The notes under the pieces: model-generated
Told to the model about the DNA's origin: nothing
What the model saw: the letters and a program-made list of their open reading frames with translations, nothing else
Databases searched by the model: none
DNA from: Escherichia phage ST32
DNA length: 53,092 nucleotides
Strand: one strand, 5' to 3'
Sequence record: NC_047830.1
In this document: one piece after another, positions 673 to 11,857 of the stretch
Position numbering within the stretch: the stretch's first letter is position 1
Layout: every line of letters begins with the position of its first letter
Translations under genes and position numbers: made by a program

Positions 673-2613
673 ATGACTACTATCACCACTCAAACTATCA
701 AATCCGTTGTTCCTGCTATCACTGCTCTGGTATACCGTGCCAAAGAGAAACAGAACTATATGCAGCCTCAGACTTGTGCTATTGCTGCCTTAGCCATCTT
801 CAAGATGATGACGTCTTTCACTCGTGATGACGTTGTTCCTGCCATCGCGATGGTTGAGCTGGCTTCTGCTTCTATTGCTGATGCCAACCGTTATAACAAC
901 GATTTGAAAGCAATGCACTATGTTGACCCAGCTATCAACCTCATTGGTCTGGCTAAGCACTTTGGCTTCATTACCATGAACGAAGACAAGTCATTCCAAC
1001 AAACTGATACATGGGTTGAACTGGTTACAACCAAAGACACAGCAGTGCCATTCACTGAACGTGTTACATCTGAATCTCGTCGCAAGCCTTTCGTTAAAGG
1101 TGGCAAAGTTAAGCCATCCAAGACTCTGAAAGCTGCAATCGAATTCCTGCAAGATACTGAGTACCATGTGGAGACTGAGATGGTTCGCATCATCCAGTCC
1201 ATGCTTGAGCAACGTACTTATGGCGGCTTGCAGATGCCAGAAGCAATCCAGACTGAACTCCATGTTTGGAACAATGCTGTAGCAATGATGAATCAGGACA
1301 CGCTGTATTCTGACTACTTTGCTGATAACCGTGGTCGCCTGTATCATGTAGCATGTGCTGGTCCTAACCCACAATCATCTGACTTTGCTCGTTGCTTGTA
1401 TTCTCACAATGTTGAGAACATCGTTAAGAAGTTTAACGAAGATGGTTCTACTACCATTGCATACAACATGTTCATGGCAGAGCTGGAAGATATTTCCGGT
1501 GGTGAATGGTGCAGTGCTAAGCGTCTGACTTATGTTGCTCAGAATCCAGCTGGTTCACTTGCTCGCATGATGAACATGCCTAAAGCTGAACGTCCTTCTA
1601 AGCCATTCACTTATGTTCGTCTGGCTCTGGATTGGTTCAAGTTTGAGACTACAGGTGAATGCGATTCTCGTGTAGGCTTTGGCTTAGATGCTAAATGTTC
1701 TGGTACTCAATATCTGGCATTCATTGCTGGTAACATGGAAATGGCTCGTGCAACAGGTCTGGTTGATTCTGAGACTAAAGCATCTGACCCATACCAGTTG
1801 AGTCTTCGTGAACTGTTGAAGCTGCTGGATAAATCTTCAATGAAGCCATCTCCTGAAATCATGGATGAATTCTTGAATCCGAAAGCTGGTCGTAAGTTTA
1901 TCAAAACTCCATACATGGCTATTCAATATGGTGGTGGTAAAGCTGCATTGACTGGCTCTTCTGACTTCATTAGCTACATGACAGAAGCACTCCAGATTCC
2001 TATGGAGAAAGCTGAGGCATTTGCTGAACTGTGTGTGGAAGCAATCCATAACGCATTGGGTGCTAAGATTAACATGTTCATTGAGAAAGCTGCTGATGCT
2101 GCATACAACCGTTGTGTTGAACTTGGTAAAGAGTATATCACATATCGTCACACTGATGGTCAGGTTGTAATGAAGCCTTGCTTCCCATCTCGTGAAATCT
2201 GTGAGGCATTCAGCATTCGTGTTGATTCTCAAACTCGTGTCATCTTTGGTCAGATTCAGGAGAATAAGCCTTGGACCATTCGTGAATCCAATCCAACTAA
2301 AGAAGAATTCAAGCGTACTTTCGTTGTTAACTACATTCAAGGTATTGATGCACTTGTTGCTCGTACTGTTGCAGTTAAAGCTAAAGAAGCTGGTCTTCGT
2401 GGCTTCACTTCAATCCATGATTGTTTCCGTTGCTGTTTGGCAGATGCTCCACGCATGATGGAAGTTATTCGTGCAGCATATGTTGAAATCTTTGTAACCA
2501 ACAATCAATTCGAGAATCTGTCTAAGCAACTTGGTGGCATTCAGATGTATCATGAGAACATCGTAACCGAAGAGCTTCTGATGAGCGAACACGCTTACTA
2601 CTTCTGCCAGTAA
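673..2613 (+). CDS. single-subunit DNA-dependent RNA polymerase, compact (646 aa)
   Basis: T7 RNAP-like motifs in order: GLDAKCSGTQ (motif A), RKFIKTPYMAIQYGGG (motif B), IHDCFRC (motif C); GGAGA RBS 7 nt upstream of the ATG. Confidence 0.85.
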   Translation: MTTITTQTIKSVVPAITALVYRAKEKQNYMQPQTCAIAALAIFKMMTSFTRDDVVPAIAMVELASASIADANRYNNDLKAMHYVDPAINLIGLAKHFGFITMNEDKSFQQTDTWVELVTTKDTAVPFTERVTSESRRKPFVKGGKVKPSKTLKAAIEFLQDTEYHVETEMVRIIQSMLEQRTYGGLQMPEAIQTELHVWNNAVAMMNQDTLYSDYFADNRGRLYHVACAGPNPQSSDFARCLYSHNVENIVKKFNEDGSTTIAYNMFMAELEDISGGEWCSAKRLTYVAQNPAGSLARMMNMPKAERPSKPFTYVRLALDWFKFETTGECDSRVGFGLDAKCSGTQYLAFIAGNMEMARATGLVDSETKASDPYQLSLRELLKLLDKSSMKPSPEIMDEFLNPKAGRKFIKTPYMAIQYGGGKAALTGSSDFISYMTEALQIPMEKAEAFAELCVEAIHNALGAKINMFIEKAADAAYNRCVELGKEYITYRHTDGQVVMKPCFPSREICEAFSIRVDSQTRVIFGQIQENKPWTIRESNPTKEEFKRTFVVNYIQGIDALVARTVAVKAKEAGLRGFTSIHDCFRCCLADAPRMMEVIRAAYVEIFVTNNQFENLSKQLGGIQMYHENIVTEELLMSEHAYYFCQ

Positions 2614-6929: not shown

Positions 6930-7155
6930 GAACTATATCGAAATGTTTAAGCAACTGTCCATCAATGGGCAGGAGTTCTTGCTAAACGATGCAAGGCAAG
7001 ATATTGAGCTGTCTGATAAATACAGTTACTCATATCAGAGAACTATTGTAAAATGGACGTTCTCTTATATATCTTACAATCTCCCAGGAGAAACGCTTGT
7101 AATTAGCGGTTCTGGTGATTCAGTTTTAGCAGCTTTGGAGAAATTAAAGCAATGA
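6922..7155 (+). CDS. hypothetical protein (GTG start)
   Basis: GAAGG RBS 6 nt upstream of GTG 6922. Confidence 0.45.
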   Translation: MGKNYIEMFKQLSINGQEFLLNDARQDIELSDKYSYSYQRTIVKWTFSYISYNLPGETLVISGSGDSVLAALEKLKQ

Positions 7156-7439
7156 ACAAGAATTCAATCTTACGTTATGTTGGTAAAACAAACTACAACT
7201 TTACCAACGGTAAGAAGTACAAAATCGTCGCAGGTCGTGGTGACGGGGTTCCTCGCAACAACGGTACACTCGGTGCGTATATTCAATCTCCTTTGGGTTT
7301 TGTCGTTAATGACGATAACCGCAATTTATGTTATCGTACATTCTCCGATAATTGGGAACTTGTGAAAGATTCTGGTGAAGTTAGTTGGTATAAACCTGAA
7401 TCAAACATGGACCCAATTCCAATTTCAAAGGTGATGTAA
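7152..7439 (+). CDS. hypothetical protein
   Basis: ORF, start overlaps upstream stop. Confidence 0.5.
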   Translation: MNKNSILRYVGKTNYNFTNGKKYKIVAGRGDGVPRNNGTLGAYIQSPLGFVVNDDNRNLCYRTFSDNWELVKDSGEVSWYKPESNMDPIPISKVM

Positions 7440-7636
7440 TGCGAGTAAATACTCATTTGTACAGCCACAAAAGCCACAGTCCTATGAACATCTTTGCTGG
7501 ATGGACTCTGTGGTTTGTTGGTGAAGAATGTAGTCCTTGGCATAACGTCGAGTGCAAATTCTTTCCAGTGAAGCCTACCAAAAAGCAAATCCGCAAATTG
7601 CGTAGGAAGTTTATAAACGATTGTAAGTCCTGTTAA
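7439..7636 (+). CDS. hypothetical Cys-containing small protein
   Basis: ORF with AAGGTGA RBS. Confidence 0.45.
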   Translation: MRVNTHLYSHKSHSPMNIFAGWTLWFVGEECSPWHNVECKFFPVKPTKKQIRKLRRKFINDCKSC

Positions 7637-7677
7637 ATTAACAAGGAGCATTCATTGAGTGTTCCTGATTAATCTAA

Positions 7678-7694
7678 CATTAGTTGAGTGTGAA
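7678..7694 (+). promoter_or_regulatory. conserved phage promoter-like motif CATTAGTTGAGTGTGAA
   Basis: motif family member, 20 bp upstream of gene 7715. Confidence 0.5.
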
Positions 7695-7714
7695 TAGCAA
7701 CTTCTGGAGGGCTT

Positions 7715-8197
7715 ATGTACAAATTTAACCCAATGCAAGATGGCATTACGCACATAAATATCTACACTCAAGGAAAGACGCAACTAGGCCGTGCATTGTC
7801 GAATCTATTTGATTGTGAATTTACTGTGCCAGGTTACGGAGATTTTAAGTCTTTGGAGGGATTTTGGTATTACTACCTCACAGGATGTAAGCATGAAGAA
7901 TTAAAATCTCTTGGAGGTTTTGCAGCAAAGAGCTTTGGCAGGAAATTTCCTTTTGACAGAATAGATGAAGAATCTATTGGCCCAGTGGGAGAACAGCGGG
8001 AAGTAATACTTGAAGCAATACGCTGTAAACTGCGACAGAATAAGTGGATTTGTAAGTTGTTGAAAGAATCAGAATTGCCACTGGCACACTACTACGTGCC
8101 TAAAGGAAAAGAGTACTCCATGCAGTATTCAATATCAAAGTTCCAATGGCAGGTCGAAGAATTTGAAAGGTTGAGAAAACTTTTGAAAGGTGTTTGA
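7715..8197 (+). CDS. possible NADAR/YbiA-like domain protein (low-confidence family assignment)
   Basis: GGAGGG RBS; ordered motifs HINIYT, ALSNLF, FKSLEGFWYY, EVILEAIRCKLRQN resemble the YbiA/NADAR fold as I recall it. Confidence 0.55.
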   Translation: MYKFNPMQDGITHINIYTQGKTQLGRALSNLFDCEFTVPGYGDFKSLEGFWYYYLTGCKHEELKSLGGFAAKSFGRKFPFDRIDEESIGPVGEQREVILEAIRCKLRQNKWICKLLKESELPLAHYYVPKGKEYSMQYSISKFQWQVEEFERLRKLLKGV

Positions 8198-8235
8198 TTA
8201 TCAGGGTGCATTTACGAGTGTACCCGAATAATCCA

Positions 8236-8251
8236 ATTAGTTGGATGTGAG
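8236..8251 (+). promoter_or_regulatory. conserved phage promoter-like motif (AATTAGTTGGATGTGAG)
   Basis: motif family member upstream of gene 8323. Confidence 0.45.
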
Positions 8252-8322
8252 GGACAAAGCTATTCCGTGGTTAGCAATGTCACTGAAACTTAAACTGTAA
8301 TTAACTTAAGAGAATCTTAATC

Positions 8323-8700
8323 ATGGCACAATATTCAGATGTAAACACTGGCATTATCGGTCCTAACGGCTTCAAGAAAGACCCAAAACATCCTGACATT
8401 CGTGGACGTATTAACGTTGACGGAATCTGGTATTGGGTATCTGGCTGGAACAAGCAAGCAAATGGTAATGAGTTTACCTCACTTGCATTAACCATCATGA
8501 CCCAAGAACAGGTTGACGAAATGATGCGTAAGCGTGAAGAGAAGGCTAAAGCCAAAGCTCAACCTCAAGCCGCTGCCCAACAGCAACAGCAACGCCAGCA
8601 ACCTTCTGCACAACAGCAAGCACCTGCTCAGCAACAGACGCAGAACAGTAACTACAATCCGAACGAGCCGAAAGACTTCGACGACGACATTCCGTTCTAA
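8323..8700 (+). CDS. small protein with Q/A-rich linker and SSB-type acidic C-terminal tip DFDDDIPF
   Basis: last 8 residues identical to the E. coli SSB C-terminal tip; N-terminal about 70 aa is a possible mini OB fold. Confidence 0.65.
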   Translation: MAQYSDVNTGIIGPNGFKKDPKHPDIRGRINVDGIWYWVSGWNKQANGNEFTSLALTIMTQEQVDEMMRKREEKAKAKAQPQAAAQQQQQRQQPSAQQQAPAQQQTQNSNYNPNEPKDFDDDIPF

Positions 8701-11043: not shown

Positions 11044-11322
11044 ATGGAATATCAGGAAATACCGAAAGAGTTAGAGCGTATGCAATCTCGCACATCTCGT
11101 GCAGAGGCAGAACTCCACCAGCATTTGTCAAACTATGTGTACGATTCTCGAAATCTCAGATACGAAATTTCGGTAGATGGTTGTTGCTATCCGGTAACAT
11201 ATGATGAGAAGACCGCCATCTTAGACATATTAGTGAAGGGTGGAAAAGAGCGGATTGAACAGCTCAAAATCCTTAATGCGGAACTTCAAGGCATGTGGGA
11301 GAAACTCAATGCAAAACGATAA
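11044..11322 (+). CDS. hypothetical protein
   Basis: ATG 11044 has GGAG 6 nt upstream; track start 11032 lacks an RBS. Confidence 0.5.
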   Translation: MEYQEIPKELERMQSRTSRAEAELHQHLSNYVYDSRNLRYEISVDGCCYPVTYDEKTAILDILVKGGKERIEQLKILNAELQGMWEKLNAKR

Positions 11323-11857
11323 CATTACTCAAGCAGTAGAACAGCTTAAGTCCTGGCGTAGAGATGAAACCTTATTGGTTCGTTTCTACACAGGCGAAAC
11401 TAATTCTGAATTTGTAGATGCGTGGATTGATGGCCTGTCTTGGCGTCACTATGATTTCGACATGAGAGACTATTTGCATGAAGAATACGGCATTGAATAT
11501 CCAGAAGACGGCACATATGACGTAATTGAATCAAATGAAGAGGATGTTACCGAAGTTTGCTTTGTTGACGGACTTTTCAGCATTCGTAAATATGACAAGT
11601 TCAACGAACTGCTTGTTGATACTGATTTGGACGTAATTCTTGCAGCATTCCGCAGTGGTGATATTGATATTTTCACTGTAGACGATTTGAATGACAAGGT
11701 TATTTGCCGATGTAATTCAATTGCGGATTATTTCCAGCAATATGATGGCATAGAAGTTCCAGACCATCTTCGTCCATATATTGATTGGGATGCAGTTGCG
11801 AGAGATTACGGAAGTGATTACACTTTCTCCGAAGGGATACTATTCTCAAATGCGTGA
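11309..11857 (+). CDS. acidic protein; possible DNA-mimic/antirestriction type (speculative)
   Basis: GGGAG RBS before ATG 11309; strongly D/E-rich; C-terminal YIDWDAVARDYGSDY motif. Confidence 0.5.
   Translation: MQNDNITQAVEQLKSWRRDETLLVRFYTGETNSEFVDAWIDGLSWRHYDFDMRDYLHEEYGIEYPEDGTYDVIESNEEDVTEVCFVDGLFSIRKYDKFNELLVDTDLDVILAAFRSGDIDIFTVDDLNDKVICRCNSIADYFQQYDGIEVPDHLRPYIDWDAVARDYGSDYTFSEGILFSNA

Follow-up and report, generated by a model that had tools for sequence, protein, structure and literature searches.

The gene at positions 7715..8197 (+) of the 53,092-nucleotide stretch of Escherichia phage ST32 analysed here (NC_047830.1; this whole stretch is referred to below as the window) encodes a very diverged, stand-alone and core-only member of the NADAR superfamily, and its closest relatives are the His-type 'phage NADARs' typified by T4 gp30.3/AdfN. 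Membership of the superfamily can be regarded as settled. The most likely job of the protein would be to strip DarT1-type ADP-ribose from guanine in phage DNA, by which replication would be restored. For the full chain, that is, a His-type NADAR N-glycohydrolase that counters DarT1-type guanine ADP-ribosylation, we estimate a probability of roughly 40%. The protein is noteworthy in that it is invisible to curated models, that a lysine constraint has been lost across the very large clade to which it belongs, that its gene forms a promoter-equipped cassette and that this cassette resides in a small Chaseviridae genome. It represents a diverged instance of an already known kind of phage protein, and no new kind of system.

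The 160-aa ORF runs from the ATG at 7715 to the stop codon at 8195-8197 in the ORF listing, exactly where the earlier note had located it, and a Shine-Dalgarno sequence, GGAGGG, lies 3 nt 5' of the ATG (7706..7711, +). The window is that of a phiEcoM-GJ1-like phage (Chaseviridae, Cleopatravirinae, Carltongylesvirus), and the ST32 region is 86-95% identical to those of phiEcoM-GJ1-like myoviruses. Phages of this kind have a single-subunit RNA polymerase of their own, encoded in the window at 673..2613, and use phage-specific promoters. The nearest relative of the region is PP952070.1, 'Staphylococcus phage Pel53', for which the deposited host is Staphylococcus hyicus. This host label looks doubtful, given that Pel53 has a Chaseviridae genome with 88% DNA identity to the window, the hosts of whose other relatives are Escherichia, Yersinia and Shigella.

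The NADAR-fold gene is flanked by an ORF with a DUF7279 domain and by the gene for a single-stranded DNA-binding protein (SSB). The former, a 65-aa ORF (7439..7636, +; Pfam DUF7279, E 2e-15), is itself accessory, occupies the same variable slot and is absent there in Pel53 and phiEcoM-GJ1 (GJ1). The SSB homologue (8323..8700, +) gave no Pfam SSB match at E ≤ 0.1, and it has a long Gln/Ala-rich linker (AQPQAAAQQQQQRQQPSAQQQAPAQQQTQ) followed by an acidic DDDIPF tip. Further along the window, a 205-aa ORF (11240..11857, +) has a weak match to ArdA antirestriction proteins (E 7e-4, 20.6 bits, below the 27-bit cut-off). It occupies the position of the 'putative antirestriction protein' of GJ1 and of the 'replication inhibitor protein' of Pel53, and might be a second counter-defence gene.

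As a single sequence, the protein was recognized by none of the curated models. The Pfam scan gave no match at E ≤ 10, including PF08719, PF08010 and PF22397, and the NCBIfam scan gave none either, which was also the outcome for T4 gp30.3 itself. BLASTP of the window protein against T4 gp30.3 returned no match, and the PHROGs matches were phrog_652 and phrog_11222, both described as of 'unknown function'. The sole PDB match obtained with the single sequence, to a thioredoxin-like protein (phmmer, E 0.16), was judged spurious. The Pfam and NCBIfam negatives indicate that the family is too diverged for curated models. The profile search that the earlier note had proposed as a check came back empty at the level of the single sequence, but reached NADAR by family profile and by profile-profile comparison. 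With a family profile made from an alignment of 39 homologues, the best PDB match of the family HMM was 8BAU (E 8.8e-4), which is the Phytophthora nicotianae NADAR (PnNADAR) with ADP-ribose. Further, hhalign linked the family both to the T4 gp30.3/AdfN family, represented by an alignment of 35 sequences (96.7%, E 3.6e-10, 137 columns), and to the YbiA clade (80.8%, E 1.3e-5, 135 columns); for scale, gp30.3 against YbiA gave 97.6%. Among the 39 relatives, one reached E 0.05 with PF08719 and two matched PF08010 at about 9e-4; all gp30.3 homologues carry PF08010. The closest deposited homologue, that of Pel53 (95.6% identity), is annotated as 'DUF1768 family protein', DUF1768 being the former name of NADAR.

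The motifs on which the earlier note had based its low-confidence assignment to the NADAR/YbiA family were all found, in the order given there, and MAFFT alignment with E. coli YbiA paired them as it had described: HINIY with INFY, LSNL with FSNF, SLEGFWYYYL with SEHYFQAQK, FGRK with MGRD, and LEAIRCKLRQN...LL with RKALRAKFEQH...LL. The C-terminal glycine-rich part, reported as not evident, is indeed missing, with the D..WG.G..G.N.LG stretch absent in the same alignment. The AlphaFold2 model (pLDDT 96.3) was predicted to have the YbiA fold, with an alpha-helical core and two small flanking beta-sheets, and the only fold matches of the model were to NADAR structures, namely those of YbiA, PnNADAR and the G. 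lovleyi NADAR. Among predicted viral structures, the protein's own family ranked first (TM about 0.8), and the next named matches were all viral NADAR/YbiA-type proteins except for one Marseillevirus 'dual specificity phosphatase'. The family HMM, the hhalign links to gp30.3/AdfN and YbiA and the predicted fold together bear out the assignment, and the outcome that the earlier note had named as refuting it, a lack of NADAR/YbiA profile matches or a different predicted fold, did not occur.

NADARs are divided into three types by a residue in the last strand, which is Glu in YbiA, Asp in the DarT1-associated proteins and His in phage gp30.3; in PnNADAR the key residues are Glu43, Lys50 and Glu125, and K75, G78 and R79 cover the pyrophosphate (PMC11543638, PMC11125620, PMC12945103). 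The Ser of the SNF motif and the Glu of the S-x-E motif line the substrate channel (PMC12945103). We counted residue conservation over 205 members of the family. The ribose-positioning Glu, E48, was present in all 205 and aligns with E43 of PnNADAR and E36 of AdfN. H125 in the last strand was present in 204 members, and in the alignment its counterpart in gp30.3 is the invariant H123; relative to YbiA, its register is ambiguous by one residue, with hhalign placing it on H126 and MAFFT on E125. The S29 column was occupied by Ser or Thr in 204 of the 205, and N30 was found in 200. The stretch A71-K72-x-x-G75-R76 aligns with A74-K75-x-x-G78-R79 of PnNADAR, and K72 and K105 are also conserved across the family. 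Furthermore, the C-terminal helix is present (residues 141-159), and R154 aligns with R149 of gp30.3; RB69 AdfN is inactivated by losing this helix (PMC11257639). H13, N15 and Y17 of strand 1, together with W51, K105, P122 and Y126, are invariant residues that are specific to the family and have no canonical counterpart, and the clade carries the signature H-x-N-x-Y ... S-x-E-G-F-W-Y ... A-K-x-x-G ... K ... L-P-x-x-H-Y-Y. The feature at 7715..8197 is accordingly annotated as a NADAR-fold CDS of the His type (gp30.3-like), on the basis of the ORF, homologues, profile matches, AlphaFold2 model and residue conservation, with H13, N15, Y17, S29-N30, E48, W51, A71-K72, G75-R76, K105, P122, H125-Y126-Y127 and R154 as key residues.

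The canonical phosphate-binding Lys at the seventh position after the conserved Glu (Glu+7) is replaced by L55. Over the 205 members, the residue in the Glu+7 column was Leu in 62, Ser in 41, Lys in 32 (16%), Ala in 26, Gly in 10 and Phe in 9. This Lys (K50 in PnNADAR, K95 in the NADAR of E. coli C7 and K43 in AdfN) serves to coordinate the pyrophosphate, and when it is mutated, activity or rescue from DarT1 is lost (PMC11543638, PMC11257639). Its absence suggests that ADP-ribose may be bound differently or that the substrate may differ. An alternative pairing of K59 with AdfN K43, produced by hhalign through a 4-residue gap, was rejected: column 59 is variable (K in 17 of 39), the MAFFT alignment has no gap in the helix, and divergent members and Ackermannviridae copies have Lys exactly at Glu+7. 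At positions 79 and 82, 39% of the Lys-less members carry Arg or Lys, against 3% of the Lys-containing ones, and the window protein has R82. The pattern is suggestive only, and would fit a basic residue at 79/82 that compensates for the lost Lys from a loop which binds adenine and ribose in PnNADAR. The D..W segment, of which D130 and W133 contact the phosphates in PnNADAR, is absent from the window protein.

The NADAR-fold gene is an accessory cassette. In phiEcoM-GJ1, nothing lies between a 95-aa ORF, the homologue of window 7152..7439, and 'putative phage promoter 3' before the SSB gene, while in SA91KD two unrelated small ORFs occupy the cassette slot. Pel53 has the NADAR gene, which is the only close copy among 44 related records. 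A hairpin-plus-promoter module is duplicated, with one copy on each side of the gene, and the two repeat units of ~60 bp (7637-7699 and 8198-8256) agree in 44 of 63 aligned columns. The upstream hairpin (7636..7675, +; dG -14.9 kcal/mol, z -5.35 against shuffles) has a 5-bp outer stem, an internal loop and a 10-bp inner stem, and aligns with the hairpin before promoter 3 of phiEcoM-GJ1 and with the SA91KD and Pel53 copies. The downstream hairpin (8196..8232, +; dG -14.7 kcal/mol, z -5.33) has the same architecture. Their stems differ by compensatory changes (AGGAGCA/TGTTCCT versus GGGTGCA/TGTACCC), which suggests that selection acts on the RNA structure itself. Since no U-run follows either hairpin, they may be processing sites or terminators for the phage polymerase rather than intrinsic terminators. 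In SA91KD, the single hairpin copy precedes the SSB promoter and is annotated there as a rho-independent terminator.

Promoter-like sites were scored with a matrix derived from the nine putative phage promoters that are annotated in phiEcoM-GJ1 and that themselves score 23.0 to 31.6. The upstream site of the phage-RNA-polymerase type, TAACATTAGTTGAGTGTGAA (7675..7694, +), scored 24.1. The downstream copy, TCCAATTAGTTGGATGTGAG (8232..8251, +), scored 17.1; it is aligned with the annotated promoters of GJ1 and SA91KD as the counterpart of GJ1 'putative phage promoter 3' and serves the SSB gene at 8323..8700. A pattern search gave ATTAGTTGGATGTGAGGGACA at 8236-8256 as its single match in the window, where none is expected by chance. 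Across the window, 15 (+) sites and 2 (-) sites scored above 10. The (+) sites, with the core CATTAGTTGGAT.TGAA, are at 587, 2631, 2895, 3748, 7675, 8232, 12157, 12298, 12435, 13805, 14242, 14574, 22332, 27630 and 42139, and several of them, e.g., 587, 2631 and 12435, have no counterpart among the nine GJ1 promoters.

From these matches, the NADAR gene is predicted to be transcribed from its own phage-polymerase promoter, the promoters behind the matrix being annotated and unverified ones. The gene is probably co-expressed with the replication genes and not expressed by mere early read-through. The earlier note had placed it among early genes; this needs qualification, as the gene is not just one in an early-gene run but appears to carry a promoter of the phage-RNA-polymerase type and sits with replication genes. 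Its variable presence as an accessory gene (absent in GJ1 and SA91KD, present in Pel53) and the flanking module fit a counter-defence gene.

In the mechanism that we propose, an ADP-ribosylated nucleobase is bound in the YbiA-fold cleft of the protein. Two residues, E48 where helix 1 begins and H125 in the last strand, would grip the distal ribose between them and favour hydrolytic cleavage of the N-glycosidic bond between ribose and base, while K72 and G75-R76, possibly with R82, would cover the pyrophosphate. Transcription by the phage RNA polymerase from the gene's own promoter, beside the SSB and replication genes, would supply the enzyme. For the guanine-directed role the precedents are strong. 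All three phage NADARs tested, T4 AdfN/gp30.3, NADAR-Bas32 and NADAR-Bas60, neutralise DarTG1 (PMC11257639), adfN is conditionally essential on DarTG1 hosts (10.1101/2025.11.20.689424), and every NADAR assayed hydrolyses guanine-ADPR (PMC11125620, PMC11833690). Nevertheless, T4 AdfN did not rescue DarT1 toxicity outside the phage context (PMC11125620), so NADAR activity is no guarantee of protection.

The family of the window protein is broad. Its homologues form 60 clusters at 90% identity, and at least 545 phage records contain one, including Ackermannviridae and many jumbo phages, with almost all copies annotated 'hypothetical'. The family HMM retrieved 2,110 clusters (50% identity) at E ≤ 1e-3, 709 of them at E ≤ 1e-30, and the distribution is mostly over myoviruses and jumbo phages. 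One homologue, gp04 of Proteus phage Myduc, is 69% identical to the window protein. According to tblastn, the clade occurs in Henunavirus (Vequintavirinae of Erwinia), and no E. coli rV5-like phage was among the best 60 of 187 tblastn records. In Ackermannviridae, the homologue lies between histone-like and MazG-like genes and adjoins topoisomerase II genes. Multi-domain relatives (DUF4326-NADAR, NADAR-SLOG and Macro-linked) reach up to 683 aa. When the domain architectures of 63 multi-domain relatives were scanned, the partners were DUF4326 in 29, SLOG of the YAcAr type in 29, a DprA-like domain in 10 and Macro in 3, and single cases carried Pyr_excise (pyrimidine-dimer DNA glycosylase), BRCT, DUF488-N3a or an I-TevI DNA-binding domain. 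The Pyr_excise, BRCT and I-TevI fusions may indicate that some members, at least, act on DNA. Erwinia phage RAY (4498-5852) has a NADAR-SLOG protein with the homologue as its N-terminal half, encoded directly downstream of a Macro-domain gene. These architectures are those of Iyer et al. (PMC9503650), and the clade was thus probably counted as NADAR there, though curated models miss it. On DUF4326 and rhodanese-phosphatase, a literature search yielded nothing further than that paper.

These partners bear on a somewhat unlikely reading, in which the protein is an active NADAR-fold N-glycosidase on a soluble ADP-ribose derivative and blunts NAD+- or ADPR-based immunity, with no DNA repair involved. 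Candidate substrates would be an immune second messenger, for instance a cyclic ADPR isomer or an ADPR linked to a base or an amino acid, or else a side product of RNA repair or of the cleavage of NAD+. The relatives are very often fused to SLOG or to DUF4326, a predicted ribose-phosphate phosphatase, with Macro adjoining or fused, and Iyer et al. argue that the network targets low-molecular-weight ADPR derivatives, reading the DUF4326/SLOG/Macro fusions as pointing to such soluble compounds and not to DNA adducts (PMC9503650). Loss of the pyrophosphate Lys, together with the family-specific invariant His, Asn and Tyr, likewise suggests a changed ligand. However, all NADARs assayed act on base-linked ADP-ribose in nucleic acids (PMC11543638, PMC11125620, PMC11833690, PMC12945103), and degradation of an immune signal has been shown for no NADAR. 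The window protein stands alone, and a scan of 39 further ORFs in the early/middle region (2.6-17.7 kb) revealed no Macro, ART, SLOG, Nudix or DUF4326 partner. A few relatives, moreover, carry the DNA-directed domains Pyr_excise, BRCT and I-TevI DNA-binding. A bolder version of the argument, which we consider unlikely, is that the large clade has evolved a substrate not yet known for NADARs, either another ADP-ribosylated base or an ADPR-derived immune signal handled with DUF4326/SLOG/Macro partners; the clade would then be a new class of counter-defence enzyme and not another AdfN.

It is distinctly unlikely that the target is a nucleic-acid adduct other than the guanine-N2 product of DarT1 (ADPR-cytosine, -adenine or -thymine, or guanosine-ADPR in RNA), by whose removal the protein would counter a different ADP-ribosyltransferase toxin. 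NADAR specificity does vary, with some members reversing cytidine-ADPR or acting on guanosine-ADPR in RNA (PMC12945103, PMC11833690), and the base pocket could be given another shape by the aromatic-rich helix (W51-Y52-Y53-Y54) and by Y126-Y127, which stand in place of canonical residues. Nevertheless, thymidine-ADPR was reversed by no NADAR tested (PMC11125620), the His-type relative AdfN is guanine-directed (PMC11257639), and the sequence points to no particular alternative base.

A weakened or inactive NADAR that works by binding, whether by sequestering an ADP-ribose-containing molecule or by attaching to a host ADP-ribosyltransferase, seems improbable. It would accommodate the missing Lys, which is essential in E. 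coli C7 NADAR and AdfN, and the anti-DarT factors AdfA and AdfB do act by toxin binding (PMC11257639). Yet E48 and H125, which flank the scissile bond, are almost absolutely conserved in the counts given above, a pattern typical of a working enzyme, and K72 and K105 are conserved as well in a family of ~2,100 clusters; a two-hybrid test, furthermore, showed no binding of AdfN to DarT1 (PMC11257639). Finally, the empty single-sequence scans and the weak thioredoxin-like match might suggest that the likeness to NADAR is an artefact and that the protein has a different fold or comes from a different family, or it might be a YbiA-like housekeeping N-glycosidase of riboflavin intermediates, but we give these possibilities almost no weight.

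If the protein indeed acts against DarTG1, as we favour, orphan-antitoxin-like NADARs would extend from T4-like, T5-like and rV5-like phages to the small Chaseviridae, and a function would be gained for a family present in at least 545 phage genomes, among them many jumbo phages used in therapy and biocontrol. A family that lacks the 'essential' Lys and keeps the Glu/His pair also offers a natural experiment on NADAR mechanism and specificity. As current Pfam and NCBIfam models miss the clade, a new model would improve phage annotation.

Several known systems can be set beside the window protein. The viral DUF4326-NADAR-SLOG/Macro modules (PMC9503650) draw on its own family, which supplies such architectures and has a similar phage distribution, whereas the window copy is single-domain and stands without such partners in the region of a 53-kb Chaseviridae genome that was searched; NADARs have been reported to be rare in small phages (PMC9503650). 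DarG1 (BC4488 family; the G. lovleyi protein 8BAT and the NADAR of E. coli C7) differs by an Asp in the last strand where the window protein has His. At 219-234 aa, DarG1 is also longer, with N-terminal extensions that form a DNA channel, while the window protein has 160 aa and no extension; its essential K95 and its DarT1 operon partner both lack an equivalent in the window. Relative to YbiA and the canonical NADARs (PF08719; E. coli YbiA 2B3W, PnNADAR 8BAU), the last-strand Glu, E125, is changed to His, and the Lys at Glu+7, D130, W133, the Gly-rich loop and the PF08719 match are missing.

T4 gp30.3/AdfN (PF08010, Phage_30_3) is the closest of these systems. The two proteins differ in that identity is ~23%, that the window protein has no PF08010 match and that the essential K43 of AdfN corresponds to its L55. 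The window family adds an N-terminal strand with H-x-N-x-Y, a W-Y-Y-Y helix and H-Y-Y, and is often fused to DUF4326 or SLOG; anti-DarTG1 activity has been demonstrated for AdfN, whereas for the window family it is suggested by analogy with AdfN, NADAR-Bas32 and NADAR-Bas60. On the other hand, both lack the glycine-rich D..WG.G segment, and both have the Glu in S/G-x-E-G-F (E48 versus E36), the His of the last strand (H125 versus H123), the A-x-x-x-G motif and a C-terminal helix with a conserved Arg at its end (R154 versus R149). In each case, a core-only NADAR domain of ~150-160 aa is encoded by a stand-alone phage gene.
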